Origin: Pseudomonadota bacterium
GTDB lineage: Bacteria > Pseudomonadota > Alphaproteobacteria > Rickettsiales > SXRF01
Reading direction: 5' to 3'
DNA length: 60,004 nucleotides
Assembly (NCBI GenBank): GCA_963205245.1
Contig: CAUJIB010000090.1
Location: forward strand, 1-60,004
Numbering within the stretch: position 1 is the stretch's first letter; each line of letters starts with the position of its first letter. This document shows positions 1,511 to 33,788 of the stretch, in pieces. The position numbers and the translations under genes are program-made. The notes under the pieces were generated by a model. That model ran no database searches. It had not been told where the DNA came from and saw only the letters and a program-made list of their open reading frames with translations.

Positions 1511-1516
1511 GGTTTC

Positions 1517-2152
1517 TCATCGTAAGAATAATCTATTTGTTATGCTATAAAGTACATAGCGTATTAGTAGCATCTGGATAAGTGCTATAGTAAAACCAGA
1601 AACTACGTCCATGGGGAAATGTACTCCTAGTGCTATTCGTGACCAAGCTACTGAGGATATCGCAAATATACCGCTCCAACGGAAATTTTCATTAAGAGCA
1701 GGCCATAGTGCTGCTATTAAAACGGTAATAATAATTACATGTCCACTTGGGAAGCTTTGATATGCTTCTTTCGTCACCTGCCCTTCCAGTTGTATAACCT
1801 CAGAAGAAGAAAGCATGACATAAGGGCGTGGATAGGAAAAATACTCCTTAAGATAAGAAGTTGTGTATTTTGTAGAAACAAGACCAGCCCCTAGCATGAT
1901 AAAAATATTAATCCACATAAAGATATGATATTTTATTCCACCTTTTCTGGTAGAGAGTTTGAATAATAGGGAAAGTACAGCATAAACACCTATCGCCCCT
2001 AAATAATATGGTAATAAATCAACCTGTCCGAGCAGGGTGATTTTTTTCATTATACCAGCGTATATATGTTCATTACTTAAAGAATTTATTTTCTTAAAAA
2101 GCCAAGTATTTATACCAAGCCAATCATACCATAAATCCCTAAGATTGCTCAT
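1517..2152 (-). CDS. PAP2-family phosphatase (membrane)
   Basis: 211 aa, multi-TM. PAP2 motifs PSGH and SRIALGVHFPMDV are present. Confidence 0.7.
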   Translation of the reverse strand: MSNLRDLWYDWLGINTWLFKKINSLSNEHIYAGIMKKITLLGQVDLLPYYLGAIGVYAVLSLLFKLSTRKGGIKYHIFMWINIFIMLGAGLVSTKYTTSYLKEYFSYPRPYVMLSSSEVIQLEGQVTKEAYQSFPSGHVIIITVLIAALWPALNENFRWSGIFAISSVAWSRIALGVHFPMDVVSGFTIALIQMLLIRYVLYSITNRLFLR

Positions 2153-7374: not shown

Positions 7375-9306
7375 TTAATGTGTAAAGGCTACAATCCCTC
7401 CGGTGCTGCCAGTGAGAATCTGGTCAAAAGCTTGGGTTGGGGTGGCTTGCGGTATGCCGGTACTATCAAAAGCTAAACTTTCAGTGAAGCTATAGATAGA
7501 GCCTAATTTCATGTAAATTCTTGGTACGGCACTGTTTGATAGAGAATAAACTACATAATTGTTAGAATTCTTGGAAAATGAAAAGGAAGCAGTTGGGCTA
7601 CCGGTTACTGCTGGAGTTGAAGTAAGGTAGTTTTGATCTACTGCAACAGTGTCGGCTCCCGAAATAAATGTCCCATTGCAAAATATATCATTGGGATCAA
7701 TTTTGCAGATAAATGGAGCAGAAGATACTATATTTGATACAAAATATTTATTATCTTGGGAAAATAACAGGCTGTTATTGGTGCTGGCAATAGAATCTGT
7801 AAAGTCCGTGCTTAGTTTTACAAAGCTTGGGGTACTGCCGCCTAATACCCGCCAAATTTTGAAATAATATGAAGATGTTGCAAAACGCTCGGTTTCTATC
7901 AAATATTTTCCGTCAGGGGAAAATACTAATGATTCTGGGGAGTTAACAGTCCCTATGGTCGGGGTGGGTTGGGTTATATCAGTAGCGGATGCGCTAAAAC
8001 TATCACCTTTACGTTTATATATTCTAGAGGTCGTTCCGGTACTGCGTACCGCCAGTAATGTAGCGTCTATGGAGAATGAAAGCTCTTGTACTGTTCCCCC
8101 GTGAGGGGTAGGAGAAATTGGTGTACTGGAAAGTTTTACAAATTTGTCACCCGCCTGTTTCCATAAATTTATAGTTGCGGAATTGCTTATAGCTAGATAT
8201 CCGTTATTGGAAAGATCCATTACTCCATTGGCATCATATACACATTCTTCACCTGTGGCAAAAGCAGTGGATAAATTAGTAAGCGTGCCGTTAGCATTTA
8301 TTTTGTATAAATTGCAGCCTGCGAAAGAATAAACCAATAAATGCTGGTTCTTTGCAGTAAATGCAACCCCGCGTACCTTATCAGTTGGGAGCGGGCTTAA
8401 ATCTGCCTGTTTTATAAATGCCCCGCATTGATTTTTATAGGTGTAAACGGTACCCCCTGCAGCTTTAATATATCCTATAGCTAGGTCTGGACCTCTATAA
8501 CCATCGTCATTAAGGGCATCTTGAGGGGACGTCATTTGCCAGCGTTCTTTATAACGCACAATATCATCAAAATAATTGGTTGCTGATGAAGAATTTGGGT
8601 TAGGGTTTCTTTGTATATAATTGCCTAGTACGGTCGTATTAACTGCTGAGCTCGTACAGTGGCAATTAGCAAGTTCATCAACATTAGTACTGCCTGCATT
8701 GTAAAGCGTTCCGGTATTAGTGTGGGCTCCATGGCCATTTTTCCCAAAACTAATTAACGCATAAATAGCACTGTTAGAGCGATCATTGCCGCTTGCATCC
8801 ATGATCCTGATGGCGGTGTCGTTAACTGTACAAGCACTGCTTTTTGCTGGGATACGTGAGCTTGCATAAGGCAAAGCAAAATTTGGCTTTACAGCATATC
8901 TTATTTTTTTTCCCCAAGCGTCATATATAAAATCTTTCGGTAAGTCCAATGTTGTTATCGGTACAGCCCCTTCTGCTGCCTTATAAAGAAAATTCAAACT
9001 GGTATTGGCATTTGCTGATGGAGTTCCTCCTGAACATGTAAGATTTACATTGCTTGCTTCTACTCCATAATTAGTACTTGTTGAGGCTAAGGTTGCATCT
9101 GCCGGACAAGGAAGCCGCCCGTTTTTTTGCCAGAAAGTAAGTAAAGCCTTTTCTATTGTGTCTAGGCGGTTATTAGTGGCTACTATATTGGCTGACTCGA
9201 TCATCTCTAGAGATGATGAAATGCTGAAAGAGCCTATTAAAGCTATAATAACTATAACAATAGTTAGTTCTATTAAAGTAAAGGCCTGTTTTGTAAGTAA
9301 ATTCAT
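7375..9306 (-). CDS. prepilin-type N-terminal domain protein with large propeller-like body
   Basis: 643 aa. The N-terminus MNLLTKQA|FTLIELTIVIVIIALIG is a class III signal with Glu at +5. The body has repeated strands such as LVFSPDGKYLIE, LLFSQDNKYFVS, GVAFTAKNQHLLVYS and ELSFSIDATLLAV. Confidence 0.75.
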   Translation of the reverse strand: MNLLTKQAFTLIELTIVIVIIALIGSFSISSSLEMIESANIVATNNRLDTIEKALLTFWQKNGRLPCPADATLASTSTNYGVEASNVNLTCSGGTPSANANTSLNFLYKAAEGAVPITTLDLPKDFIYDAWGKKIRYAVKPNFALPYASSRIPAKSSACTVNDTAIRIMDASGNDRSNSAIYALISFGKNGHGAHTNTGTLYNAGSTNVDELANCHCTSSAVNTTVLGNYIQRNPNPNSSSATNYFDDIVRYKERWQMTSPQDALNDDGYRGPDLAIGYIKAAGGTVYTYKNQCGAFIKQADLSPLPTDKVRGVAFTAKNQHLLVYSFAGCNLYKINANGTLTNLSTAFATGEECVYDANGVMDLSNNGYLAISNSATINLWKQAGDKFVKLSSTPISPTPHGGTVQELSFSIDATLLAVRSTGTTSRIYKRKGDSFSASATDITQPTPTIGTVNSPESLVFSPDGKYLIETERFATSSYYFKIWRVLGGSTPSFVKLSTDFTDSIASTNNSLLFSQDNKYFVSNIVSSAPFICKIDPNDIFCNGTFISGADTVAVDQNYLTSTPAVTGSPTASFSFSKNSNNYVVYSLSNSAVPRIYMKLGSIYSFTESLAFDSTGIPQATPTQAFDQILTGSTGGIVAFTH

Positions 9307-9372
9307 AGGGGCATTTATCTATTGATAATAAAAAATATATGAAATGATAATTATTACAAAGTGGCGTTAATA

Positions 9373-10200
9373 TTATGTTAATATATCATATTCTTTAAGT
9401 GGCAATTTAGAATTTTTCATAACGTTTATAGCGGCTTCCAGATCGTTTGGGAATCTTTCTAAATTATATATTTTTAAGCTGGCATCACCATATATTTGCG
9501 AATTTGGTTCACACTGATTTTTTATACCATAATAGATAGCAGAAAGAATAGCGAGTATTACTTGCCGGACATCGGCATCAGCACCAGCTACCCTGTGTTC
9601 TATACGTTTGTTGTCATGTGCGGAATCTGGCAGGCGTAAAGCTACCGTTCGGTTATTCGCTCCCCAACTTACAGTAAGTGGAGCGTTACCCCCTTCTGTA
9701 AATCGTGAATATGATTCCTCATTGGGTGCGAATACTGGCATAGTTTCAGGCAACCATAGAAGAAGTCCTCCCAGTGAGTATTTTAGAGTATCACTTATTA
9801 TTTTATCATGCTTAAAAAACTGGTTTTTTCCTTGTTCATTTTCCAGATGGATATTGATGTGTAATCCGCTGCCAAAATCATTTTCTACAGGTTTTGCGGT
9901 AAAATTTGCCTGCATGGAATATTTGCCAGCTAAATCTGTAACGATAGTTTTTAATTCATTGCTATCAGATGCGGTTTTTTCCGGATCATTGCAAGTTGAT
10001 AGAGATATTTCATACTGTTCATTGCCACGCTCTTTTTCTATTTTGAAAATATCTATATTTTTATCTTTACAAATTTTCCTTATTCCATCCCAGAAAAAGG
10101 ATAAATCCTGTCCATGTGAACCAAATAGGTAGAATTCTATTTCACTGGCAGTTATTGCCCTCAGCCCAAAATCACGTAACAATCTATTAGATATCTCCAA
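9373..10200 (-). CDS. glutamine synthetase catalytic-domain-only protein (N-terminal domain absent; possibly a relic)
   Basis: 275 aa, TTG start abutting the stop of the upstream SPOR gene. GS landmarks EIEFYLF, AKPVENDFGSGLHINIHL, NRTVALRLP and RIEHRVAGADAD are present. The ~100-aa beta-grasp domain is missing and the protein is internally shorter. Confidence 0.6.
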   Translation of the reverse strand: MEISNRLLRDFGLRAITASEIEFYLFGSHGQDLSFFWDGIRKICKDKNIDIFKIEKERGNEQYEISLSTCNDPEKTASDSNELKTIVTDLAGKYSMQANFTAKPVENDFGSGLHINIHLENEQGKNQFFKHDKIISDTLKYSLGGLLLWLPETMPVFAPNEESYSRFTEGGNAPLTVSWGANNRTVALRLPDSAHDNKRIEHRVAGADADVRQVILAILSAIYYGIKNQCEPNSQIYGDASLKIYNLERFPNDLEAAINVMKNSKLPLKEYDILT

Positions 10201-10983
10201 TTATTCACTCACCAAGATACAAGCTTGTCCTTTAGATGATAAGGTTTTGCATAGTGACTTAGCTGAATCTTTGCCAGAAAAGCCACCTACTCTCAAACGA
10301 TAAAAAGTACCCTTTCCTACTATATCGGCTCTTACAATAATTGGTGATTTTACAGATAATTCAGGAAATTTTTTCTGAATTTTTACCCAAACATCACGTG
10401 CTTCTTTATCAGAGCCATATGCTCCCAGCTGTATTTTTTGTCCGCTGGATTTTGCTTGTATTTTATCTTTTGCGGGTTCTATTTTTTTCTCTGTTTTAGT
10501 TTCTTTTAATTCTTTTTGTTCTACAGGTTTTTCTGCGGTTTTTATTTCAGCAGTTTTTTTATCATCAATCCCTGATGCTTCTATCTTTTGTACGTCAATA
10601 GTCTCTTCAGAGATTGCTTTATTTTCTATTTGGCTAGTTTTGTTTTTTTCAATGGTTTTTTCTGTTTCGGTATTGGTAACAATAGGTTCTTCAGGAGCAG
10701 GAAGTACGCGCTCAACTTTAGCTGGTTGCTGGTTGTTTGAGAATGTTTCAAAAATAGTTTTATCCTGATTTGGGAATTTCATTCCACCCGGATCTAGCGG
10801 TTTTTCTTTTACCGGAGTATCTTCAGCTTCAACTACTAGCAAATCTTCTTCTTTGACTGATTCTTTTCCTACTTGATATGAATACCAAGCTAGAGATACG
10901 AAGCCAGCTACTGCCACTAATAATAATATAGTTGGAAACCATTTTGACATTCCGCGTGAATCATCATCATTTTCACTAGTCAT
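10201..10983 (-). CDS. SPOR domain-containing protein
   Basis: 260 aa. N-terminal TM, E/K-rich linker and a C-terminal SPOR-like QLGAYGSDKEARDVW...YRLRVGGFSGKDSAKSLC. Confidence 0.8.
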   Translation of the reverse strand: MTSENDDDSRGMSKWFPTILLLVAVAGFVSLAWYSYQVGKESVKEEDLLVVEAEDTPVKEKPLDPGGMKFPNQDKTIFETFSNNQQPAKVERVLPAPEEPIVTNTETEKTIEKNKTSQIENKAISEETIDVQKIEASGIDDKKTAEIKTAEKPVEQKELKETKTEKKIEPAKDKIQAKSSGQKIQLGAYGSDKEARDVWVKIQKKFPELSVKSPIIVRADIVGKGTFYRLRVGGFSGKDSAKSLCKTLSSKGQACILVSE

Positions 10984-24312: not shown

Positions 24313-24358
24313 TGGTGGCTCGGGGGTGATTTGAACACCCGACCAAGGGATTATGATT
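24313..24358 (-). repeat. displaced 3' half of tRNA(CAU) (att junction, host-derived copy)
   Basis: 46 nt matching 33714-33759 with 4 substitutions. The 21-bp identical core cccgaccaagggattatgatt is at 24338-24358. Confidence 0.85.
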
Positions 24359-24452
24359 TACTTGTTACCATACAATATAATGTAAAATATCACTTAGCCT
24401 TGATAAAATACCCCTTGATTATTATATATAATAGTATAACTAATAGTAAGCT

Positions 24453-24507
24453 AGATAACATAATGAAATATGCAGAGAGGCTATTTTTTGTTATCTAGCA
24501 GTTATCT
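24453..24507. promoter_or_regulatory. arm-type repeat cluster (AGATAAC / GTTATCT x2, 11-bp phased) next to int
   Basis: agataac at 24453, gttatct at 24490 and 24501. A 26-bp near-copy of attttttgttatct..gttatcta lies at 33642-33667. Confidence 0.6.
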
Positions 24508-24519
24508 AGGAGGGGTATT

Positions 24520-25764
24520 ATGCCAAAAGCAAAATTGACAGATTTTTTTGTTAAAAATTCAAAATGCTCGCCTGATAAAATCAGAGAAGAAATTTTTGAT
24601 ACCGAGCTTCCAGCGTTTGCTTTACGGGTGACTTCTAAGGGGTTGCGTAGCTTTGTTTTGTATTACAGGGCAGGAAAGAAACAACGCTGTATTACTATAG
24701 GTAATTATCCAACCAAAACACTCAAAGATGCTAAAGACGAAGCAAAAGAAATACTAGTTAATCTAAAAAAGGGGAAAGACCCTCTGGTTGATCGCGCTGA
24801 TACCAAATACAAACTACATATTGCCGCTACTAGCGTTCCAAATACCTATGAAACCATGATTGATTCATTTGTGGAAAAATATCTGAAAGCAAAAGGCAGG
24901 CGCACTTGGCACGAAATAGAAGTAAAACTAAAGGGCGCACCACTTAAAAAATGGAAGGGCTGGGAGGTTGAAAAAATCACAAGGCAGCACGTTCGCGAGT
25001 TAATAGAAGAAGTATTTGATAACGGTAATAAGCCCATTGCTGCTAACCGCTTGTTGGCACATTTAAAAAGATTTTTCGGATGGTTATGTGAAAAAGATAT
25101 TATAGAATCATCACCAGCCCAGCACATTAAAATGATGGGCGAAGAAACAAAACGCGAGCGTTTCTTAAAACGCGAAGAAATAAAAAAGTTCTGGGAAGTT
25201 TGCGAATCGTTAGAATATCCTTGGAAACAACGCTTTCAGCTTGCATTAGCAACTGGTATGCGCGGGCAAGAAATTATGCGTATGCGTTGGAGCGATATAA
25301 ATACCAAGGAAAATATATGGACTATACCAGCCGAAGATTCAAAGAATGGTATGGCTCATGACGTGCCTCTATCAGACCTTGTGCTGGATATTATAGAATC
25401 AATTCCCCCTATGTCAGACACGTATGTTTTTACCACTATGCTAGATAAGCATATTACCCATAATAATAAACAAACAAAAAAATTATATAACCTATGTAAG
25501 TTTGATACCCTTTGGACATTACACGATCTACGCCGTACTGTTGCAACCTTTCTAGGTGAACTTGGATATGAAAAAGACATAATAGGTCGTGTGCTGAACC
25601 ACAAAGGAGCATTTTCACAAACTGACACATACCTACGACATAAATACTTAAAAGAAAAAGCAGTTGCACTAAAAGCATGGGCGAAAGAATTAGAGAATAT
25701 TGTATCAGGCGAACCACACAAAATATTAACCCTGCATCGTCATCCAACTACGCAAAAGAAATAA
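24520..25764 (+). CDS. int: tyrosine site-specific integrase (P4-like, with N-terminal arm-binding domain)
   Basis: 414 aa. N-terminus LTDFFVKN...FALRVTSKGLRSFVLYYR. Catalytic set ATGMRGQEI (R), HDLRRT (HxxR), VLNH and DTYLRH (Y). Confidence 0.95.
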   Translation: MPKAKLTDFFVKNSKCSPDKIREEIFDTELPAFALRVTSKGLRSFVLYYRAGKKQRCITIGNYPTKTLKDAKDEAKEILVNLKKGKDPLVDRADTKYKLHIAATSVPNTYETMIDSFVEKYLKAKGRRTWHEIEVKLKGAPLKKWKGWEVEKITRQHVRELIEEVFDNGNKPIAANRLLAHLKRFFGWLCEKDIIESSPAQHIKMMGEETKRERFLKREEIKKFWEVCESLEYPWKQRFQLALATGMRGQEIMRMRWSDINTKENIWTIPAEDSKNGMAHDVPLSDLVLDIIESIPPMSDTYVFTTMLDKHITHNNKQTKKLYNLCKFDTLWTLHDLRRTVATFLGELGYEKDIIGRVLNHKGAFSQTDTYLRHKYLKEKAVALKAWAKELENIVSGEPHKILTLHRHPTTQKK

Positions 25765-25780
25765 CAGTCAAAAACTAATG

Positions 25781-25803
25781 ACAAGTGATATATAGTCACT
25801 TGT
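25781..25803 (+). terminator. hairpin after int (weak terminator or binding site)
   Basis: acaagtga-tatatag-tcacttgt is a perfect 8-bp stem, but no U-tract follows. Confidence 0.3.
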
Positions 25804-25869
25804 TCCAGCAATAAAATCATATTGAATTACCTGTATATTATCTGTATATTCTGTGTCATTATTATACCC

Positions 25870-25898
25870 AGATAACCACTAGATAACAGCAAGGTAAC
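25870..25898. promoter_or_regulatory. three 11-bp-phased AGATAAC/AGGTAAC repeats abutting the start codon of the putative terS
   Basis: agataac at 25870, agataac at 25881 and aggtaac at 25892, with the ATG at 25899. Confidence 0.5.
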
Positions 25899-26267
25899 AT
25901 GCCAGAACAAAAGCGGATACGCAAACATCGCAAGCGGATAGGTGTTTATAGTAGTGATACCACCCTCAAGAACATAGACGAGCGTACTGTTGAAGGTAAA
26001 CTGATAAGCACTATTACTCAGGAACTCTATACACACGTTGGTGGCAATCCTACCGTTGCCGAGCAGCTTCTTATTCAAATCATCAGCCTCAAGGCAATGA
26101 GAGTGTCTTTATATGCAAAACTACTGATAGAGGGTAGCGCACAAGACACAGAAGATAGGTTTTTAACACTAAGTAATTCACTACGTAATGATCTCAACCT
26201 TCTTGGTATAAAGGCAACCAAACAGGAAGCCCCTGCCCTTCACCAATATATCGAGGGCAAGGCATGA
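25899..26267 (+). CDS. putative small terminase subunit (call based on position)
   Basis: 122 aa with basic N-terminus MPEQKRIRKHRKR. 4-nt overlap with the large terminase gene. Confidence 0.4.
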   Translation: MPEQKRIRKHRKRIGVYSSDTTLKNIDERTVEGKLISTITQELYTHVGGNPTVAEQLLIQIISLKAMRVSLYAKLLIEGSAQDTEDRFLTLSNSLRNDLNLLGIKATKQEAPALHQYIEGKA

Positions 26268-27664
26268 ACATCATTCAAGCTATAGATGATCCAAAGCTGT
26301 TAAAACCCTGCCTAAAGGGTGAATCATGGCATGAATGGCGGATGGTGCTTAAAGCCCTGTTTGCTCTTCCTATGGATGATAATGAACTAGAAATGTTTAA
26401 GGCTATTACTGGAAGAAATACACCACCTCAGAAGCCTGTAAAAGAGGGCTGGTTTATTGCTGGTAGAAGAAGTGGTAAAAGTAATGTATCGGCACTCATT
26501 GCCGTATATCTTGCTGCTTTCGTAGATTATCGCCAACACCTTGCCAGCGGCGAATATGCAACCGTCATGCTGCTTGCTGCTGACCGTGACCAAGCCAGAA
26601 CACTAATTCGCTATGTTAAAGGCATATTGCATGACGTTCCTATGCTAAGTTCACTTATAGAGGCAGAATCGAAAGAAAGTATAACATTGAAGGGACGTGT
26701 AGTTATAGAAATACACACAGCTGGATTTCGTGCTGTGCGTGGCTACACCGTTGTTGCTGCAATATGTGATGAGGCTGCATTCTGGCGCAGTGATGATACC
26801 GCAAACCCTGATTTAGAAGTGCTTGCTGCGCTTCGCCCTGCCATGCTAACAATACCAAACTCTATGCTGCTAGGGATTAGCTCTCCTTATCGCCGAGCAG
26901 GAGCACTCTGGGAAGCATATCGTGATCATTACGGCAAAGATGATAGTGACGTGCTAGTGCTAAAAGCTAGCAGTAGAATAATGAATCCATCGCTACCGCA
27001 AGCAGATATAGATGCTGCTTATGCGCGCGACCCTGCCTCTGCCTCTGCTGAATATGGCGCAGAATTCCGTAGTGACATATCAGGATTTCTTGATAGCAAC
27101 TGGATAGACAGAGCCGCCAATCTTCCCGATGGTGAGTTACCACCAATAAATGGAATACGTTATTTTGGCTTTATTGATCCTTCTGGTGGTCGTAAGGATA
27201 GCATGACAATAGGTATTGCACATGTTGAAGAATCAGGGCAAGTGGTACTGGATGTTATACGTGGACGCAAACCACCATTTGAACCATCAAGTGTCGTATA
27301 TGAATTTACTGATATTCTGAAACGATATGGACTTACTCGAGCAACTGCTGATAGATATGGTGCGGAATGGGTGAGTGCAGAATTTAGAAAAGTAGGAATA
27401 ACGCTGGAAGCGTCATCAAAAAGCAAAAGCGACATATACCTTGAAATAGAACCACTGTTTGCCCAAGGCGGTTTACAGATGCCAGATAATCATAAATTAC
27501 TATCTGAATTCCGCCAATTGGAACGTCGCACTACTCGCAGCGGAAAGGATAGTGTAGACCATCCGCCACATGCACATGATGATTTTGCCAACTCTGCTGC
27601 TGGTGCCTTGTGGCTTGCCTCTCAACCCAAAATACAGTGTTTGCCAAGCGTGCGCCAGCTATAA
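26264..27664 (+). CDS. terL: phage terminase large subunit
   Basis: 466 aa. Walker A GRRSGKS, Walker B/coupling AAICDEAAFW, and a C-terminal RNaseH-like nuclease (GFIDPSGG ... HDDFANS). Confidence 0.9.
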   Translation: MNIIQAIDDPKLLKPCLKGESWHEWRMVLKALFALPMDDNELEMFKAITGRNTPPQKPVKEGWFIAGRRSGKSNVSALIAVYLAAFVDYRQHLASGEYATVMLLAADRDQARTLIRYVKGILHDVPMLSSLIEAESKESITLKGRVVIEIHTAGFRAVRGYTVVAAICDEAAFWRSDDTANPDLEVLAALRPAMLTIPNSMLLGISSPYRRAGALWEAYRDHYGKDDSDVLVLKASSRIMNPSLPQADIDAAYARDPASASAEYGAEFRSDISGFLDSNWIDRAANLPDGELPPINGIRYFGFIDPSGGRKDSMTIGIAHVEESGQVVLDVIRGRKPPFEPSSVVYEFTDILKRYGLTRATADRYGAEWVSAEFRKVGITLEASSKSKSDIYLEIEPLFAQGGLQMPDNHKLLSEFRQLERRTTRSGKDSVDHPPHAHDDFANSAAGALWLASQPKIQCLPSVRQL

Positions 27665-27756
27665 CATATTGATTTATATATAAGTGAACATAGATGAACA
27701 TTAAGTGAACATTAAGTGCATATATAACATATTGATTTATATATAAGTGAACATAG
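27661..27756. repeat. iteron cluster A: 33-bp direct repeat x2 enclosing AGTGAACAT-type 9-mers
   Basis: ataacatattgatttatatataagtgaacatag occurs at 27661-27693 and 27724-27756. agtgaacat is at 27683, 27704 and 27746, and gatgaacat at 27693. Confidence 0.85.
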
Positions 27757-27766
27757 TGACAGGTGC

Positions 27767-28738
27767 TTAAAAGATAATAGGTTCATCTTGTGGTATTAAA
27801 TTATAATATCCATTTTGTTCTCTGATAAGTTTCTTCATGCTAGAAAGTGCACGTTGAGTACCGCGCAAACTTTTCTTTAATTCTTTGGCAATTTCTTTTG
27901 AGCGCATAGGCTTTTCTTTCAACAAGCTTATAATCTCTCTTTGCTTGTCAGAAACATTTTCATACTCATCAGCTTCGCCTTCATATTTCCAGCAAAGTGT
28001 TTCATTATTGAATCTAACCTTAAATTTTCGATCACCGTCAAATTTATCGGTGATAAAAACCAAACCCTCAGCGTTTCTTTTTTCTCTTTTTAAAGAGATG
28101 ATGCAATCTGCAGCCGCCACAATTGCCTGACTGCCTAAAGCATCCTCAAGATGATTATCATCAACTGATGCACCTTTGCGGTCATGGTGAATTAGCAAAA
28201 TTACAATCTTTTGTTCATGTGCAAGGTTTTTTAATGCGCCGAGGAATTGGTAATTTTCACTAAAATCATCACGCTTTCTACCTTTAATGGCTTTTCCATA
28301 AGTATCTATGATAACAAGTTTGATTCCCTTTTGCTCAAACAGACAAGCTCTTAAATCTTCTGCGCCACCGTCATCTATTGCCTTCCAACTCATATGCCAA
28401 TCTAACAAAGGCGGAAAATGCTCACCGTTGCATTGTTTATTCATCCTATATTTTACTAATCGTTCTTTATCTTCGTAGGATAGATATAGCACCCGCATTT
28501 TTTCAGCTTGCGCATCGAATATTTCAGACTCAGAAGCAACAGCGATGGCAAACTGCATTGCTAAAATACTTTTTCCTTCCTTCGGCTTCCCTTTAAGCAA
28601 CACCAAACCTTCATCTGGCAACAATCCATGTATTAGATATTTTGGGTCAGGTATCTGCATTATTTCAAGTTGTGAGCTTGAAAGATAACCATCACGCCAT
28701 GTTCTTTTTATATCTGCCTGTTTGCTAATTGCTTGCAC
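27767..28738 (-). CDS. RepA/DnaB-like (RecA-fold) ATPase with C-terminal winged-helix domain
   Basis: 323 aa. Walker A GKPKEGKS, Walker B KLVIIDTYG and IVILLIHHDRK. The C-terminal ..REIISLLKEKPMRSKEIAKEL.. looks like a wHTH. Confidence 0.75.
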   Translation of the reverse strand: MQAISKQADIKRTWRDGYLSSSQLEIMQIPDPKYLIHGLLPDEGLVLLKGKPKEGKSILAMQFAIAVASESEIFDAQAEKMRVLYLSYEDKERLVKYRMNKQCNGEHFPPLLDWHMSWKAIDDGGAEDLRACLFEQKGIKLVIIDTYGKAIKGRKRDDFSENYQFLGALKNLAHEQKIVILLIHHDRKGASVDDNHLEDALGSQAIVAAADCIISLKREKRNAEGLVFITDKFDGDRKFKVRFNNETLCWKYEGEADEYENVSDKQREIISLLKEKPMRSKEIAKELKKSLRGTQRALSSMKKLIREQNGYYNLIPQDEPIIF

Positions 28739-29043
28739 ATTTCCTCACTTACTTTTGATGTTAATTTATCTATAAATTCTGGCTTACATAAAGATATAAG
28801 TGCCATCTCTAGAATTGAGTTTTTTAGTTCCAAGGAGTAAAACCGCTTCTGGTAATCAGCAGCGCATAACTCTGCTTCGTGAAATTTACCCTCCAACAAT
28901 TTTAGATCTCGCTGGAGGGTAAGAACATCAAGACGCGTGGTTTGATAGCGAAACATCTTTGATTCTGGACATATCTGGTCGCGAACCATTTCAATTTCGC
29001 TATCAAGCGCATGTATTTCTTGGTTGAGTTGCTCAATGCTCAT
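28708..29043 (-). CDS. hypothetical coiled-coil protein (island)
   Basis: The start is moved to the ATG at 29043, one nt after the upstream TGA, giving 111 aa. The end overlaps the repA-like start. Confidence 0.5.
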   Translation of the reverse strand: MSIEQLNQEIHALDSEIEMVRDQICPESKMFRYQTTRLDVLTLQRDLKLLEGKFHEAELCAADYQKRFYSLELKNSILEMALISLCKPEFIDKLTSKVSEEMCKQLANRQI

Positions 29044-29044
29044 G

Positions 29045-29302
29045 TCAGTTCTTAGTAGCTCCCTCAACACTGATCATAAGAGCTTTCTCTAACCTAGCCT
29101 TTGCACCACGAAAAAACTCCAATTCCTGAGCAGTACTTTCCAAAGCTAAATCCATGCTTTGAATCATAAGCTCAAACCCAATAGGATTTTGCTTCATTGT
29201 TTCGATAAGATTATTATCGCTGGTAGCTAGAAGTTTCTGCGCTTCATAATAAAACCTAATCCTACCGCTTATGATTGTTTCTAGGGTTTCTGGTTTTATC
29301 AT
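29045..29302 (-). CDS. hypothetical protein (island)
   Basis: 85 aa. 4-nt start/stop overlap with the upstream ORF. Confidence 0.5.
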   Translation of the reverse strand: MIKPETLETIISGRIRFYYEAQKLLATSDNNLIETMKQNPIGFELMIQSMDLALESTAQELEFFRGAKARLEKALMISVEGATKN

Positions 29303-29523
29303 GCAGCCTCCCTTTTGATAGTTTCGTATCTATTTTTATCCAAGCATATCGATTTTAATTTACCTGTTGCTTTATCGTAAAAGCAGGCGTGAACTTGTTT
29401 AAAAAAAGGGTAATCGTCAAAAACCACATACTGGTCCTTGTAAGATTTAAGGTTTGGAGTGGCAGTATCGATACAAAAAGGATATTCATTATCGGCGTAG
29501 TCTAATCTAGTGCTAGTGTTCAT
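29299..29523 (-). CDS. hypothetical protein (island)
   Basis: 74 aa. Overlaps the upstream ORF by 11 nt. Confidence 0.5.
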   Translation of the reverse strand: MNTSTRLDYADNEYPFCIDTATPNLKSYKDQYVVFDDYPFFKQVHACFYDKATGKLKSICLDKNRYETIKREAA

Positions 29524-29743
29524 AAAAAACTCCTTTGCTTTGATTGTTGAATGTTGGTAGGAAAGGCACGGGCAATTTTATATGCCTGTGATACGTGGGT
29601 TTCTGCATTGTTACATTTGCATTAACCATGGTATTTGCTTGCTTTGTGGTGATGCTGACCGTCTCCCCAGACTCTGCCTGCATCACCGCGTTGCCCCGCT
29701 CTAGAATTGCTTGAAGCGGTGAAGATATATGTTGCCAGCTCAT
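29513..29743 (-). CDS. hypothetical protein (island)
   Basis: 76 aa. 4-nt overlap with the end of alpA. Confidence 0.45.
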   Translation of the reverse strand: MSWQHISSPLQAILERGNAVMQAESGETVSITTKQANTMVNANVTMQKPTYHRHIKLPVPFLPTFNNQSKGVFYEH

Positions 29744-29934
29744 GCGCCCCTCGCCGCCTTCCGACCTTCAAGAAAAGCATCAACCTCACCTTCGTCCCAT
29801 GACACAAATCTCTTTCCTTGACGGATGCGTTTTGGAAATTCCCCTTTATTTTCCAGTTCCATCAAATATGGATTACTGAAAGTAATGCCCTTCTCTTTTA
29901 GCTGTTTTCTATTAATTAACCGTAGCTTAGTCAT
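29740..29934 (-). CDS. alpA: AlpA-family phage transcriptional regulator / excisionase-like HTH protein
   Basis: 64 aa. LINRKQLKEKGITFSNPYLMELENKGEFPKRIRQGKRFVSWDEGEVDAFL matches the AlpA pattern. Confidence 0.8.
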   Translation of the reverse strand: MTKLRLINRKQLKEKGITFSNPYLMELENKGEFPKRIRQGKRFVSWDEGEVDAFLEGRKAARGA

Positions 29935-29985
29935 AAAAAAACCCCTTGTAATTATTGAATTAAAATGGTACTGTATATAAATAAT

Positions 29986-30037
29986 GCAGTATTTTATATA
30001 ATACTGCTAAACTAAATATAAATGCAATGACATTGCA
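29986..30037. promoter_or_regulatory. operator-like palindromes in the divergent alpA / orf177 control region
   Basis: gcagta-N10-tactgc at 29986-30007 and tgcaat-gac-attgca at 30023-30037. Extra TACTG(C/T) half-sites at 29968 and 30052. Confidence 0.4.
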
Positions 30038-30071
30038 AGTCAATACAATTTTACTGCGATAAAGGGAATAT

Positions 30072-30605
30072 ATGATTAACAGAGATAATTTAAGGGGTTA
30101 TTGGTTTACTGGTGCGGACATTGAAGCCGCTTGCAACTCTCTAGTGCCTGAAGTTGTAATTAGGGACTGGGTACAAAAGGGAAAATTCAATGAAACCTTA
30201 CCTGAAGGAGCGCGCGGCAAGCCTCGTAAATACCCATTAAATGCTGTTTATGAAGCAGTTATTATGTCGCACCTTTCTAAGCTAGGAGTGTCTTTGGATG
30301 ATGCAAAGGAAGTTAATTTACAAGTTCTTGATAAAATTACCCTCACTCAAAGAGAGGGGCATATTGGATGGATTGTCTTTGGTTCTGATAATTTAAAACC
30401 CATCTATACCCGTGATAATTTAGAAAGCAGAACTTTTGGTGAATTTGCTAAAATATTGTGGGTTGATAAAAAACTTTATTACGGAGCATCACAGACAGTT
30501 ATAAATGTGCAAGCCATTATAGACTATACAGACGAAATACTTTTAGAGCGCATCAAAGAACGCATGAGAAAATTGCTTAATGACCCATCAGTCACTGGCG
30601 AATAA
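30072..30605 (+). CDS. hypothetical protein, possible HTH regulator (island)
   Basis: 177 aa. The N-terminal ..ADIEAACNSLVPEVVIRDWVQKGKF.. resembles a MerR/excisionase-type HTH. Transcribed divergently from alpA. Confidence 0.45.
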   Translation: MINRDNLRGYWFTGADIEAACNSLVPEVVIRDWVQKGKFNETLPEGARGKPRKYPLNAVYEAVIMSHLSKLGVSLDDAKEVNLQVLDKITLTQREGHIGWIVFGSDNLKPIYTRDNLESRTFGEFAKILWVDKKLYYGASQTVINVQAIIDYTDEILLERIKERMRKLLNDPSVTGE

Positions 30606-30629
30606 AAGAAAAGGCAGGATTATAAATAT

Positions 30630-31748
30630 ATGGAACAAGCCACTATACAACAAGCAGTTGAGCATTTAACTGCTGAAGCAATGAATTTTAAAGATAGATA
30701 CGAGCAGCGCATAGATTTGCTGGAAAAAGCAGCAGCTCGCCCTCCGTCAGGCGCAGATTTCAATAATATACACGTACTTGAAAATCCACAAATGAAAGCC
30801 TTTGGTAAGTATCTACGAAGCGGCGATGACGGCGAGTTAAAATCATTACAATCCAAAGCAATGTCTGTAGGTTCTGATCCTGATGGTGGTTATTTAGTTT
30901 TACCTACACAATCCAGCAGGATGATTGAGCGACTGTTTGATACATCACCAATGCGTGCCGTTGCCACCGTGGAAACTATCAGTACAGATTCACTGGAAAT
31001 GTTTAACGATGTAACAGAGCTTGAAGCATCATGGACTAGCGAACAGGGTACTCGCTCTAACACTAGCACTTCTACGCTCGGCAAATATAATATTCCAGTG
31101 CATGAGGTATATGCTAGCCCGAAAGCCACACAAAAACTTATCGATGATTCAAGTATAAACATTGAAAGCTGGCTATTAGGCAAAGTTAATAAGGTTTTTA
31201 CCCGTAAGGAAAATGATGCCTTCATCAATGGTAATGGCGTAGGTAAACCAAGAGGATTTTTAACTTACACAAACAGCACTGGCGGAGATTCCACTCGCAC
31301 ATGGGGAGAAATTCAATACGTACCCAGTGGCACATCAGCTGTTGTTGAGCCAGATTCATTATTTGATTTGATGTATGCATTAAAAAGCGAATACCGCCCT
31401 GGTGCATCTTGGTTAGCACCGCGTGCGCTTATAAACTCTATACGCAAGAAAAAAACAGGAACAGGTGATTATATATGGCAACCTGCATTAACCGCAGGTG
31501 AACCAGATAGATTGCTTGGCTTTCCGCTGATGTATGCCGAAGATATGCCTGCGGCGGGCGCAAGTAGCCTTTCAGTAGCTTTCGGGAATTTTCGTGAAGC
31601 CTATACTATCGTTGATCGTCAAGGCATTCGAGTTCTTCGTGATCCATTCACTGACAAGCCAAATGTAATTTTCTATTCGACAAAACGAGTTGGCGGCGCA
31701 GTAGTTAATTTTGATGCAATTAAATTGCTAAAGCTGAGTGTATCGTAG
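30630..31748 (+). CDS. phage major capsid protein, HK97 family
   Basis: 372 aa. Coiled-coil N-terminal delta-like region, then DPDGGYLVLP and AFINGNGVGKPRGFL, both typical of HK97-fold capsid proteins. Confidence 0.9.
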   Translation: MEQATIQQAVEHLTAEAMNFKDRYEQRIDLLEKAAARPPSGADFNNIHVLENPQMKAFGKYLRSGDDGELKSLQSKAMSVGSDPDGGYLVLPTQSSRMIERLFDTSPMRAVATVETISTDSLEMFNDVTELEASWTSEQGTRSNTSTSTLGKYNIPVHEVYASPKATQKLIDDSSINIESWLLGKVNKVFTRKENDAFINGNGVGKPRGFLTYTNSTGGDSTRTWGEIQYVPSGTSAVVEPDSLFDLMYALKSEYRPGASWLAPRALINSIRKKKTGTGDYIWQPALTAGEPDRLLGFPLMYAEDMPAAGASSLSVAFGNFREAYTIVDRQGIRVLRDPFTDKPNVIFYSTKRVGGAVVNFDAIKLLKLSVS

Positions 31749-31773
31749 AATTAATTTAGGTGTTGATTGTTTT

Positions 31774-31810
31774 ATCCCCGCCTTTCCTTTCAAGGGGCGG
31801 GGATTTTTTT
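31774..31810 (+). terminator. rho-independent terminator after the capsid gene
   Basis: atccccgcc ... ggcggggat is a 9-bp GC-rich stem followed by ttttttt. Confidence 0.8.
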
Positions 31811-31820
31811 AGGGGGATAA

Positions 31821-33512
31821 ATGGCTGATATTGCAGAGCTGACCGTACGCATTAAAGCAGATGCGGCGCAGCTTTCTGCTGAGATGAAAAAAGTTAACGC
31901 CATTGTTCAGCAAAGCAGCGGGAGTATGTCATCATCTCTAGGTGGACTTAAAAGCCAGATGCTATCGCTTGCGCCTGCGCTTTCCGCCGTAGCTTTTGTG
32001 AATTTTGCTAAGGGTGCATTTGAAGCTGCTGACAGGCTTAATGATTTATCACAGCGCACCGGAGTTGCAGCGACTACATTATCGGCTCTGAATATCCCCC
32101 TATTGCAGGGCGGCTCTAATGTTGAGGAGTTTTCCGCCTCTATCAATAAAATGAATAATATGATTGGCGAGGCTGCAAAGGGCGGAAGTCAGGATTTATA
32201 CGACACCTTTAACAAGCTGGGCTTGTCAGTAAAAACACTGATGCAGCTTTCTCCGGAAGAGCAATTTTATGCTATTTCTAAATCACTGAACGAGATAAAA
32301 AACCAAGCCGAATTCACCAACACCGGCATGGCTATATTTGGACGCAGTTTTTCGTCGCTTGCGCCGCTGATTCGTGGAGCAAACGGCAATTTAGCAGATT
32401 TTGTGGATACGGCAAAAAAGGCTGGGAATGCAATTACCGACGAAAACCTACAAAAAATCGATGATTTTGGCGATAAATGGACAGAAGTTATAGAGAAAAT
32501 AAAGAAGGAAATAGTAGAATTTACACCGCTTTTAGATAAAATAATAAAAGCAGTAGACCTTTTTAATACTAGTAAAAGGGCTTTAGGAGTTACCGGTATC
32601 GCTGTTGGTGCTGATTTGGGGCTGATAGACCCAGAGACGGCTGCTTTCGCTTATGAAGAAGCGGCCGCAAAGGCTACTGGCGTAGGAGCTATAAATTTGG
32701 ATTCGCATACTGATAAGCCTAAAACCAAGGCTAAATCAGCTTCCGGCTCTAACCCCAACGTCAAGGCGATGAATGATCAGAAAAAAGCCATTGACGATGC
32801 AAAAAAATCACTTGATGACTATACCAAATCTCTAGAACGCCAACAAATGATGGCGGGTAAAACTCCACAACAGCAAGCTGGTATGGAGGCTTATTTCAAG
32901 ACCATAGACCTTGCGGAAAAAGCCGGAATAAAGAATGCGGAACAATTAGCTCGTGGCAGATATGAAGTTGCCGCCGCCACCTTTGAAATGAAAGAAAAGC
33001 AGGATGAGGCAATAAGATCAGCCACTCTGATGCGCGATACGCTGTCAACCTCAATCACCAGCGCAATAATGGATTTTAACAATGCCAGTGATGCAGTTAA
33101 TAACTTTGCGAAAGCGATAGCTAATACAATTATCCAGAAGAAAATAGCCGACCCGCTGGCTATGGCAATTGTAGGCAATGGAAGCAAGGGCAGCGGCATG
33201 ATTGATGGTTTGCTTCACTCTATTGGTATTCCTGGATATGCAGTAGGCACAGATTACGTTCCTAATGACATGATAGCAAAAATCCACAAAGGGGAAATGA
33301 TTATTCCGGCAGCCGAAGCGCAGGCAATTCGTAGCGGTGGTAGTAGTGGCGGAAGCGGTGTTACCGTGGTGCAGAATATTAGTTTCGCATCCGGCGTTAC
33401 AAGGGCAGAAGTGGCAAATATGTTACCATCCGTAGCGCAAGCTGCTCATGATGCGGTATTTGCCAGCATTCAGCGCGGAGGCAGCGCGGCTAAGATAGTT
33501 GGCATAAGGTAA
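31821..33512 (+). CDS. phage tail tape measure-like protein
   Basis: 563 aa, alpha-helical and Ala/Lys/Gln-rich. N-terminus MADIAELTVRIKADAAQL.., C-terminus ..YVPNDMIAKIHKGEMIIPAAEA, typical of tape measure proteins. Confidence 0.8.
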   Translation: MADIAELTVRIKADAAQLSAEMKKVNAIVQQSSGSMSSSLGGLKSQMLSLAPALSAVAFVNFAKGAFEAADRLNDLSQRTGVAATTLSALNIPLLQGGSNVEEFSASINKMNNMIGEAAKGGSQDLYDTFNKLGLSVKTLMQLSPEEQFYAISKSLNEIKNQAEFTNTGMAIFGRSFSSLAPLIRGANGNLADFVDTAKKAGNAITDENLQKIDDFGDKWTEVIEKIKKEIVEFTPLLDKIIKAVDLFNTSKRALGVTGIAVGADLGLIDPETAAFAYEEAAAKATGVGAINLDSHTDKPKTKAKSASGSNPNVKAMNDQKKAIDDAKKSLDDYTKSLERQQMMAGKTPQQQAGMEAYFKTIDLAEKAGIKNAEQLARGRYEVAAATFEMKEKQDEAIRSATLMRDTLSTSITSAIMDFNNASDAVNNFAKAIANTIIQKKIADPLAMAIVGNGSKGSGMIDGLLHSIGIPGYAVGTDYVPNDMIAKIHKGEMIIPAAEAQAIRSGGSSGGSGVTVVQNISFASGVTRAEVANMLPSVAQAAHDAVFASIQRGGSAAKIVGIR

Positions 33513-33515
33513 AAG

Positions 33516-33608
33516 ATGTTCACTATGTTCACTTGCTAGGGTTTCTGCGGTGTTGACATGTTCACTTACATGTTCACTACTAATTCACCTACTGCCGTAG
33601 GTTCATCT
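33516..33608. repeat. iteron cluster B: ATGTTCACT x4 plus two degenerate copies, inverted relative to cluster A
   Basis: atgttcact at 33516, 33525, 33558 and 33570. Degenerate aattcacct and aggttcatct follow. The 15-mer tcactatgttcactt (33520-33534) is the reverse complement of 27745-27759. Confidence 0.85.
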
Positions 33609-33641
33609 TAAACATAATATAATAACAACTGACAAAAGCTA

Positions 33642-33700
33642 ATTTTTTGTTATCTCAGCGTTATCTAATACACTGTTATCCAGCTTCATAAAAAGATAAC
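33642..33700. promoter_or_regulatory. arm-type repeat cluster (GTTATCT x2 11-bp phased, GTTATCC, AGATAAC) next to the tRNA junction
   Basis: gttatct at 33649 and 33660, gttatcc at 33675, agataac at 33694. This mirrors the cluster at 24453-24507. Confidence 0.6.
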
Positions 33701-33713
33701 CTACTGTAAAATA

Positions 33714-33788
33714 TGGTGGCTCGAGAGGGATTTGAACCCCCGACCAAGGGATTATGATTCCCCTGCTCTACCACTGAGCTACCGAGCC
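33714..33788 (-). tRNA. tRNA with anticodon CAU (elongator Met, or Ile2 if lysidine-modified), CCA encoded
   Basis: 75-nt cloverleaf GGCTCGG-TA-GCTC-AGTGGTA-GAGC-A-GGGGA-ATCATAA-TCCCT-TGGTC-GGGGG-TTCAAAT-CCCTC-TCGAGCC-A-CCA. The G1-C72 pair argues against an initiator tRNA. Confidence 0.93.

Follow-up and report, generated by a model that had tools for sequence, protein, structure and literature searches.

The satellite P4 packages its 11.6-kb genome in a T=4 shell. SaPIbov5, a phage-inducible chromosomal island (PICI) of the Gram-positive type, encodes Ccm, a satellite homologue of the HK97-fold capsid protein which is used for small capsids and works together with the capsid protein of the helper. 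A complete head set with protease, portal, connectors, HNH and TerS, and no tail gene, is found within about 15 kb in the capsid-forming PICIs (cf-PICIs) such as EcCIEDL933 (10.1101/2022.09.08.507074; PMC10085698). The PICI-like elements (PLEs) of Vibrio cholerae encode a tape measure which is present in virions with chimeric tails built of helper parts, and tmp genes have been predicted in other satellites (PMC11838301). Both a capsid protein and a tape measure are encoded by the EPIPs, satellites of Mycolicibacterium (PMC12822802). Small integrative satellites with AlpA, primase/helicase and TerS-like genes, called VEIMEs (virion-encapsidated integrative mobile elements), are known from Pelagibacter and other Alphaproteobacteria (10.1101/2022.07.26.501625). 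Elements of about 9 kb with int, RepA and a capsid protein, and with neither portal nor terminase, have been described from gut metagenomes (10.1101/2025.06.18.659913). In this work, we describe an island of 9.4 kb in a stretch of 60,004 nucleotides from a Pseudomonadota bacterium (contig CAUJIB010000090.1; the whole stretch is called the window). The island is probably a helper-dependent phage satellite which brings along a packaging motor, a capsid shell and a tape measure of its own, with a helper and with functions that we infer from the genes. A first-pass annotation of the same DNA had offered three options: a satellite, an element like a gene transfer agent (GTA), or a just-decayed prophage. 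The first of these is supported by the gene content, by purifying selection and by a plan that recurs in related islands.

Gene content of the island

The island is bounded by a 46-nucleotide (nt) direct repeat, the two copies of which are 91% identical and start 9,401 bp apart, the size of the element (Table 1). These limits lie outside the coordinates given at first. All genes named in the first-pass annotation, int, terL and alpA as well as those for the RepA-like ATPase, the HK97-fold capsid protein and a 563-amino acid (aa) protein, are present where they had been placed. The genes int, orf122 and terL, with orf122 overlapping the start of terL, are followed by a minus-strand operon running from alpA to rep and then by orf177, the capsid gene, a terminator and the tape-measure gene. 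The replication module had been described as inverted between terL and the capsid gene. It does lie there, but it looks inverted only because the map is drawn as a line. After excision as a circle, the genes from orf177 through the capsid and tape-measure genes to int, orf122 and terL are co-directional, and the replication module forms one of a pair of divergent operons.

The open reading frames (ORFs) of the island were searched with Pfam, PHROGs and NCBIfam, and none was recognized as a portal, protease, connector, tail tube, baseplate or lysis gene. When seven related phage modules were compared with the whole window by tblastn, only the capsid and tape-measure genes were matched. The absence of these virion genes, noticed before from the ORFs, is thus borne out. 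The intergenic gaps of the island do not exceed about 200 bp and its largest unassigned ORFs, of 122 and 120 aa, are too small, so there is no room for a hidden portal. A portal or protease concealed in the small ORFs was ruled out by searches of all island ORFs with Pfam, PHROGs, NCBIfam and PADLOC together with tblastn. This check, which included the predicted MerR-type structure of orf177, does not overturn the satellite reading. Pseudogene fragments were seen neither in the ORF listing of this compact island nor by tblastn with the phage modules. The island therefore has an incomplete set of virion and lysis genes (capsid protein, tape measure and TerL only) together with its own integration and replication functions (integrase, att sites, AlpA, RepA and co-varying iterons), both of them general traits of satellites.

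Gut metagenomes have yielded elements of about this size that carry int, RepA and a capsid gene and have no portal (10.1101/2025.06.18.659913), and these suggest that the island could be an autonomous minimal virus forming portal-less HK97 shells, as has been proposed for "mini viral" entities of about 9 kb. This is extremely unlikely, since the island TerL needs a portal and the tape measure needs a tail, lysis genes are missing, and the protease cleavage site of the capsid protein still has the same context as in phage capsids.

Table 1. Features of the island and of the orf122-TerL pair on two plasmids. Positions refer to the window unless a plasmid is named.
Feature	Position	Strand	Basis or remark
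Island	24313-33759		9,401 bp; bounded by 46-nt tRNA-Met repeat
attL	24313-24358		displaced copy of tRNA-Met 3' half
Arm-type integrase-binding repeats (predicted)	24487-24508	+	GTTATCT x2; repeat families D1 and I4
int, tyrosine integrase, 414 aa	24520-25764	+	Phage_integrase PF00589 E 9e-21; Arm-DNA-binding PF13356 E 6e-16
orf122, small TerL partner, TerS candidate by position only	25899-26267	+	conserved family directly upstream of TerL
TerL, large terminase subunit, 466 aa	26264-27664	+	PHROG_2 terminase large subunit E 2e-26
Replication origin (predicted)	27660-27756		two exact 34-nt repeats, each an A+T-rich stretch + AGTGAACAT iteron; more iterons between
RepA-like AAA_25/DnaB-type ATPase, 323 aa	27767-28738	-	PF13481 E 2e-26; PHROG primase/helicase families match
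Four small overlapping ORFs (120, 85, 74, 76 aa)	28708-29743	-	part of alpA-rep operon
AlpA-family regulator/excisionase	29740-29934	-	PF05930 E 3e-7; first gene of replication operon
orf177, MerR-type DNA-binding regulator (predicted)	30072-30605	+	divergent from alpA; variable C-terminal domain
HK97-fold major capsid protein	30630-31748	+	Pfam E 1.5e-77; TIGR01554 E 3e-105
Intrinsic terminator/attenuator	31774-31804	+	12-bp stem, 7 G-C pairs, T7 tail; between capsid and tape-measure genes
Tail tape-measure protein, 563 aa, full length	31821-33512	+	PHROG tape-measure families E 1e-25
Second cluster, four ATGTTCACT iterons	33516-33578	+	directly after tape-measure stop codon
tRNA-Met(CAU)	33714-33788	-	ARAGORN; Rfam 68 bits; 3' half 33714-33759 = attR
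orf122-TerL pair, Komagataeibacter nataicola pKNA06 (L146)	8648-10440		adjoins VapE, recombinase genes and DUF2213 gene
orf122-TerL pair, Methylobacterium sp. 4-46 pM44601 (L147)	1343-3132		plasmid typed non-mobilizable

Comparison with described satellites

With the proteobacterial cf-PICIs the island shares the int-alpA-rep backbone, an own capsid protein and TerL, and the order of the excised circle, in which the morphogenetic genes precede the packaging genes. It differs from them in having only the capsid gene, terL and the gene of the small TerL partner, plus a tape-measure gene, in 9.4 kb. The capsid module of the cf-PICIs is thus represented by the capsid protein only, and a tail gene is present. 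Among the packaging genes TerL is present and intact, no HNH gene was found in the island, and orf122 is a TerS candidate by position only. SatelliteFinder forbids tail genes and requires at least 9 of 11 core genes (PMC10085698), and for both reasons it would reject the island. The classical Gram-negative PICIs have the same backbone (int, alpA, pri-rep), a redirection gene of the TerS/Rpp type and no virion structural genes, whereas genes for a capsid protein, a tape measure and TerL are present in the island.

As in the PLEs, an alternative tape measure is encoded and the capsid would be manipulated. The PLEs differ in having a large serine recombinase, a RepA_N initiator and the external scaffold TcaP, but no own capsid protein and no TerL; in the island the integrase is a tyrosine recombinase, Rep is of the AAA_25 type and a capsid protein is encoded. 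A further gene of the PLEs is that of a tail assembly chaperone, often joined by a baseplate hub gene, and their helper is the lytic myovirus ICP1. The PLE tape measures are about 20% identical to that of the helper, and the island tape measure is about 60% identical to that of the nearest phage. The EPIPs combine a capsid protein with a tape measure and miss most tail and lysis genes, as the island does. Only these two proteins are common to both, however: the EPIPs are actinobacterial elements with a serine integrase, TerS, a head-tail adaptor and stopper and a scaffold, and with no TerL reported, whereas the island has a tyrosine integrase and neither adaptor nor stopper. The EPIPs have been isolated as particles; the island is known from sequence.

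The P4-like satellites resemble the island in that they have int and AlpA, replicate autonomously, integrate at a tRNA gene and measure about 10 kb, a size which suggests a reduced capsid. P4 differs in that it redirects the helper capsid through Sid, an external scaffold, and has no gene for a capsid protein, TerL or tape measure. In place of the alpha-type primase-helicase of P4 the island has a 323-aa AAA_25 Rep, and none of its small ORFs matched a Pfam or PHROG family with the functions of sid, psu or delta. The island capsid protein shows no sequence relationship to Ccm of SaPIbov5, which has neither TerL nor a tape measure. The vast majority of the VEIMEs have no capsid-like structural genes and are apparently packaged as concatemers in full-size heads. 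It had been suggested that a helper-dependent element would be new in alphaproteobacteria of this kind. This has to be tempered, since satellites, the VEIMEs, are already known in Alphaproteobacteria (10.1101/2022.07.26.501625). Similarly, the layout of TerL plus tape measure had been called unlike that of the known families; tape measures were reported in 2025 for PLEs and EPIPs, but in none of the compared systems do TerL, capsid protein and tape measure occur together while a portal is missing.

Capsid protein

The capsid protein has an N-terminal delta (scaffold) domain of about 76 aa, in agreement with the HK97 fold and the scaffold-like region recognized before. The delta domains of the island clade have 72-80 residues, measured up to the conserved motif K|A-M-S-V-G-S-D-P-D-G-G-Y, which we take to be the counterpart of the HK97 maturation cleavage K103|SLGSDADSAGS. 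In the phage relatives this region has 98-143 residues, and in 58 of 60 phage relatives from IMG/VR it has 96-212 residues (median 133). The match to the NCBIfam HK97 capsid model begins only at model position 52. In a neighbour-joining tree the capsid proteins of the window, of its relatives L019, L002, L143/L144 and L021 and of the degraded L020 and L068 stand apart from the phage capsids. By this tree the island capsid proteins are a derived lineage, a clade of its own with a shortened delta domain. The shortened scaffold domain would fit a smaller shell for a 9-kb genome.

The best phage match of the window capsid protein is that of L016 (53% identity), and for the capsid proteins of phages L014 and L145 the identity to those of the islands is only 42-44%. 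The island and L016 share the cleavage context LQSKA[M/L]SVGSD, so the S78 protease of a helper could process the island capsid protein. As a control, 80 IMG/VR loci with related capsid proteins were analyzed. None of them contained matches to the integrase, AlpA or orf177, and most showed flanking canonical genes (portal, protease and/or connector). Viral contig scans with the capsid protein, also used as a control, returned canonical phage modules only.

The closest solved structure is the capsid protein Rcc01687 (6tb9, E 6e-83) of RcGTA, the GTA of Rhodobacter capsulatus. This resemblance, a trait common to the related phage group, is all that supports the GTA-like option of the first-pass annotation. 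That the island is part of a GTA, or a parasite of an RcGTA-like particle of the host, would also agree with the RcGTA-like tail genes of the donor phages (Phage_tail_2, Tail_completion_gp17, DUF6950, Phage-tail_3 and GTA_holin_3TM) and with a host that looks alphaproteobacterial (FliI clade 3; relatives from metagenome-assembled genomes (MAGs) of Alphaproteobacteria). However, GTAs have no integrase, att sites or replicon of their own, and the island has all three. Instead of the RcGTA-type head-tail cluster of about 15 genes it contains three morphogenesis genes together with int, att and rep. Its tape measure of 563 aa corresponds to the tape measures of complete phages (542-590 aa), and no other GTA gene was found in the window by tblastn with the phage modules. 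The head of RcGTA holds about 4 kb, less than the 9.4-kb genome of the island. We therefore consider a GTA-related origin quite improbable.

Tape-measure protein and the donor phages

Sixty-two full-length homologues of the tape-measure protein were found, and those of complete phages have 542-590 aa. In six complete phage loci (L001, L003, L014, L015/L016, L017 and L145) the homologues are 45-61% identical and occupy the canonical place of a tape measure: they come after the gene of the tail tube (Phage_tail_2) and a pair of genes of chaperone size, and before the distal tail, DUF6950 and Phage-tail_3 genes, while a head module with portal, MuF, S78 protease and capsid genes lies upstream. 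By this position the 563-aa protein, at first called tape-measure-like, is a true tape measure. The tape measure of the window is 61-64% identical to that of phage L014 and 58.5% identical to that of L016. The tape measure of the related island L002 is 60% identical to that of phage L145, and the two island proteins share only 41-46% identity. Since each island version is nearest to a different phage, the tape-measure gene has been acquired or exchanged separately from the backbone. This suggests that the gene is matched to the chaperones, tube and tip of the local helper. In deposited phage genomes no close relative of the tape measure was found: most matches stay under 30% identity, short fragments reach 38%, and the coverage does not exceed 39% of the query. 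A scan of genome contigs with a tape-measure profile returned 10 loci. Phage capsid genes stand beside the tape measure in six of the seven that have upstream sequence, L012 being the one with none.

The orf122-TerL pair

The identification of TerL is confirmed by its PHROG match (Table 1) and by conserved ATPase and nuclease motifs. Against terminase nuclease domains of the PDB an E-value of 7e-4 was obtained. Homologues of 52% identity show no change in Walker A (GRRSGKS), in Walker B (CDE) or at the nuclease residues D305 and D439/D440, and the protein is predicted from these motifs to be catalytically intact. At least 289 metagenomic TerL relatives at 46-54% identity were found, and 40 more in IMG/VR. 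Their adjacent genes were clustered and representatives were annotated. Deposited phage genomes contain no close TerL relative (identity mostly below 30%, short fragments up to 38%).

In true phages a portal gene (Phage_portal_3, DUF4055 or PF04860) directly follows TerL, and the upstream gene is a different one, with a weak Terminase_2 match in one group. The orf122 family is found at 46 loci directly 5' of TerL. Among the loci with enough flanking sequence, 20 have orf122 without a portal, 19 a portal without orf122, six neither and none both. The sole exception to this exclusivity was seen in L109, a short contig outside the count. Twenty-four metagenome loci reach 3 kb or more downstream of TerL, and a portal is missing from 23 of them. 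In the portal-less loci there are tyrosine or serine recombinases along with AlpA/HTH genes, and the genes for replication are of the AAA_25, DUF3631, D5_N primase, VapE/DUF5906 or Toprim type; several of these loci adjoin tRNA genes. In some (L121, L068, L048, L106 and L118) a capsid gene, protease or tape measure is added. In a neighbour-joining tree, which is star-like and weak, the window TerL falls into a crown group of about 55 sequences, none of them linked to a portal.

The pair is also found, annotated in RefSeq only as "hypothetical protein", on non-mobilizable plasmids of Komagataeibacter nataicola and Methylobacterium sp. 4-46 (Table 1), and pKNA06 and pM44601 may be phage-hitchhiking plasmids. 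As judged from these neighbourhoods, a large group of portal-less islands and non-mobilizable plasmids is characterized by the orf122-TerL pair.

No Pfam, PHROG or PDB match was obtained for orf122, for which 29 family members were searched in PHROGs and a profile in PDB. A comparison by hhalign with two phage families in the TerS position was also negative, and orf122 was rejected as a TerS by homology. The gene called TerS at first is real, but the name TerS can be given to it by position only.

Three portal-less int/rep elements with the orf122-TerL pair differ in their additional genes. L121:3917-11527 contains an S78 protease gene, a capsid gene and a gene for a 921-aa tape measure of the TMP_2 family. 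A capsid gene, a protease gene and a tape-measure gene are found in L068:9594-16197. L106:5840-11407 carries a 797-aa tape measure alone. The juxtaposition of capsid and tape-measure genes thus recurs with unrelated tape-measure families. An unusual protein was seen among the true phages: in L113:13156-15900 a 914-aa protein consists of Phage_portal_3 (E 2e-75) fused to a C-terminal type IB topoisomerase core (PF01028, E 9e-21). The same fusion is found in L112, L114-L116 and L119.

Related islands and selection

L019 is a second copy of the island from another sequencing run, SRR34294545, with about 90% DNA identity across int-orf122-terL and again over the capsid gene and the beginning of the tape-measure gene. 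The synonymous divergence (dS) of the two copies is 0.33-0.56, and the ratio of nonsynonymous to synonymous divergence (dN/dS) is 0.034 for the capsid gene, 0.040 for alpA, 0.063 for int, 0.074 for terL and 0.077 for orf122. These five genes are under strong purifying selection; terL and the capsid gene, for which a test had been proposed before, show no relaxed selection.

The plan of the island is also found in more distant relatives. L002, from an alphaproteobacterial MAG, has 9,119 bp between tRNA-Lys att repeats, and its int, capsid protein and AlpA are 62%, 69% and 52% identical to those of the window. The order in L002 is int, a DUF3631 rep gene, small ORFs, alpA divergent from a gene for a 183-aa orf177 homologue, the capsid gene, two ORFs and the tape-measure gene. 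In L143/L144 an AAA_25 rep gene is followed at some distance by alpA divergent from the gene of a 187-aa homologue, the capsid gene, an HK97-gp10-like gene, a toxin-antitoxin pair and tRNA-Lys. L142 has alpA divergent from the gene of a 170-aa homologue, an 83-aa ORF, an S78 protease gene and the capsid gene. One strand of L021 carries alpA, Toprim and DUF3987 genes and, further on, an orf122 homologue and TerL (52% identical); the other carries a 205-aa ORF, two small ORFs, the capsid gene and tRNA-Phe. L002, L143 and L021 end at a tRNA gene. The layout in which AlpA is divergent from a MerR regulator followed by the capsid gene is therefore kept in diverged relatives, and the two complete elements are near in size (9.4 and 9.1 kb) despite differing cargo.

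The idea that the window island is a recently decayed prophage, i.e. a deletion derivative of an L016-type temperate phage in which the terL, capsid and tape-measure genes were kept by chance, draws on the clear homology (53-61%) of its capsid and tape-measure proteins to those of complete phages, and on the example of L020, a truly degraded region with a related capsid gene among transposases. It was one of the options considered at first and is largely refuted by the dN/dS values of 0.03-0.08 at a dS of 0.33-0.56 and by the compact, recurring plan. The homologous islands are not longer prophages of which the window holds a lone deletion copy, since L019, L002, L143/L144, L142 and L021 share its compact plan, and the plan and size recur in islands that are only 52-69% identical. 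The island contains no pseudogene fragments, its backbone (int, AlpA, RepA with iterons) is of the satellite type and not a lysogeny or replication module of a phage, its TerL belongs to another lineage than the TerLs of the phages that donated the capsid and tape-measure genes, and the island capsids form a separate clade with a derived short delta domain. A decayed prophage is thus very unlikely.

The genes accompanying the conserved layout vary, and different islands seem to pick different single helper parts. The product of the HK97-gp10-like head-tail gene, which follows the capsid gene in place of a tape-measure gene at L143:3240-3713, is 43-47% identical to a family of the helper-type phages. 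A Gp49/HTH_3 toxin-antitoxin-like pair comes after it (L143:3780-4375). Just 5' of the island capsid gene of L021, an 83-aa ORF (L021:9772-10023) resembles the C-terminal approximately 50 residues of S78 prohead proteases (33-41%); it could be the remnant of a protease tail or a small scaffold- or targeting-like peptide. At L020:7729-11786, in a 6-Mb genome, a capsid gene that belongs to the island clade (373 aa, with a short delta domain) and an S78 protease gene lie among IS630 and DDE transposase genes. This region appears to be a degraded relative, in contrast to the intact island of the window.

Such variation (tape measure, gp10-like protein or protease) would also be expected of a defence or interference island, the capsid protein, tape measure and TerL of which act as dominant-negative decoys that poison the assembly of invading phages, with own transfer minor or absent. 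Blocking of helper assembly is known from both satellites and prophages (PMC11364771, PMC11838301), and the genes in question are near-copies of phage parts under selection. Nevertheless, the two complete elements are similar in size (9.1 and 9.4 kb), and the intact TerL with its dedicated partner and the full integration and replication apparatus point to packaging and transfer. No meaningful match to a PADLOC model was obtained (best E 1e-4 to 8e-3, for orf76 and the C-terminal HTH of RepA), and interference and transfer are not mutually exclusive in known satellites. Defence as the main function is unlikely.

The interpretation as a helper-dependent satellite has to be weighed against several observations. 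No helper phage lies inside the window, and no tail assembly chaperone gene stands beside the tape-measure gene of the island. The L019 contig stops 44 nt into the tape-measure gene, and the dN/dS set does not include this gene. The accessory set varies between the relatives, L002 having no TerL and L143 and L021 no tape measure, and therefore no single extra gene is essential to the lineage, of which only about seven capsid-bearing islands were found. Homology of orf122 to any TerS is undetectable by PDB profile, PHROGs and hhalign. The island TerL shows no BLAST similarity to two TerLs of the donor phage type (L001 complete, L017 partial), so its fit to the portal of this type is unproven.

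The L019 contig begins inside the att repeat (L019:1) and ends at L019:7825, 44 nt into the tape-measure gene. One may speculate that a break at this place is expected if the sample holds a similar second tape-measure gene, for example that of a helper phage.

Proposed life cycle

We propose the following cycle for the satellite. The helper would be a resident or infecting siphophage of the L016/L014 type with an HK97-like head and an RcGTA-like tail; in a variant of this proposal, the RcGTA-like agent of the host itself may serve as helper. The helper would trigger the AlpA/MerR-regulator switch, upon which Int and AlpA would excise the 9.4-kb circle and RepA would replicate it from the iterons. 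The island capsid protein with its helper-type maturation site, LQSK|A[M/L]SVGSD, would assemble, together with the protease and on the portal of the helper, into a shell of a size for about 9 kb, and the island DNA would be packaged into it by orf122 and TerL. The island tape measure would take the place of the helper version in tails that are otherwise built by the helper, and connectors, tube, tip and lysis functions would also come from the helper.

More tentatively, orf122-TerL could define a large unannotated superfamily of portal-less hitchhikers that bring their own motor to the helper procapsid. Within it, the lineage with AlpA, the MerR regulator and the short-delta capsid protein would replace the shell protein of the helper and, in some members, the tape measure, the gp10-like connector or the protease, which would result in mosaic virions. 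We regard this combined view as possible. The superfamily may comprise tRNA-integrated islands and non-mobilizable plasmids in Alphaproteobacteria and in many soil, sediment and freshwater bacteria.

The known satellites either steal all capsid parts (P4, PICIs, PLEs) or bring a whole head (cf-PICIs), and the island would represent an intermediate route. If this is true, co-assembly would take place at three interfaces: of the capsid protein with portal and protease, of TerL with the portal, and of the tape measure with chaperone, tube and tip. The island would be an independent third case beside the 2025 finding of tail manipulation by satellites and would extend the capsid-encoding satellites to uncultured Alphaproteobacteria, and the orf122-TerL module may explain how some non-mobilizable plasmids and islands travel.

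Integration site, replication module and regulators

The window has about 39% G+C and a single tRNA gene, tRNA-Met(CAU), at which the island is predicted to integrate by means of its tyrosine integrase. The integrase is 62% identical to that of the L002 island. Besides the GTTATCT pair next to attL (Table 1), further pairs are found at 25867-25888 (inverted) and 33645-33667, so that both flanks of the att core are covered. Their placement around the core suggests that they are arm-type integrase sites. The island is flanked by ordinary chromosomal genes for a glycosidase, an RND efflux pump, FliI (clade 3) and aguBA. Among 15 billion proteins, none was found that reaches 90% identity with the products of these flanking genes. 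The strong terminator noted earlier after the capsid gene has the predicted stem and T run (Table 1) and lies inside the block conserved with L019.

The minus-strand operon consists of tightly overlapping genes: alpA, four small ORFs and the gene of the RepA-like ATPase. A promoter-like site is located upstream of alpA at 30043-30015. The four small ORFs were assigned by neither Pfam nor PADLOC. In comparison with L019, orf120, orf85 and orf76 show dN/dS values of 0.26-0.32; orf74, which is about 56% identical to its L019 counterpart, is outside the dN/dS set. Weak homologues of orf120 and orf74 are present in L002. At the C-terminus of RepA a winged HTH is indicated by a weak HTH_5 match at residues 265-290.

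The regulator gene orf177 had been among the ORFs singled out for a check for a hidden portal, protease or redirecting function. An AlphaFold2 (AF2) model on a 27-sequence alignment (pLDDT 86, compared with pLDDT 35 for the single sequence) has as its best Foldseek match the MerR-type regulator CvkR (7xn2, E 1.6e-5, TM 0.58/0.68), which argues for a MerR-type regulator instead. The possibilities of a TerS, an Rpp or a structural protein were rejected because of this fold; the match to Rpp 6hn7 is weak (E 0.08, TM 0.30). A word-based homologue search gave no relatives, and an exhaustive HMMER search of 1.84 billion sequences gave 27 representatives of the family, which have in common an N-terminal domain of some 90 residues, while their C-terminal halves are different. 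Relatives lie between divergent alpA and the capsid gene in six other loci examined, and by this position orf177 is a hallmark gene of the island lineage. The SaPIs, the staphylococcal PICIs, have divergent master repressors, and by analogy orf177 would be the specificity or switch regulator of the island.

The sequence ATGTTCACT occurs exactly eight times in the window, and seven of the copies form two clusters in the island, 27683-27754 and 33516-33578. The first cluster lies within the 34-nt repeats of the predicted origin and adjoins the end of repA. L019 has another Rep allele in this place, with about 32% identity over a fragment, and GGAAAC/GTTTCC repeats are found in the same spacer instead. 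Since both are swapped, the repeats co-vary with Rep, as an iteron origin would. The Rep and iteron cassette (L019:3336-4458, corresponding to 27665-28738 of the window) is accompanied by a second swapped cassette, the orf177 allele (L019:6041-6565, corresponding to 30072-30605), which is 28% identical inside 90%-identical flanks. Alleles of about 28-32% identity thus stand in islands that are otherwise about 90% identical, and this looks like a modular exchange of specificity determinants. The second iteron cluster is located 5.8 kb from the origin cluster in the opposite orientation. It could serve handcuffing and copy control, be a second origin, or lie near the packaging site.

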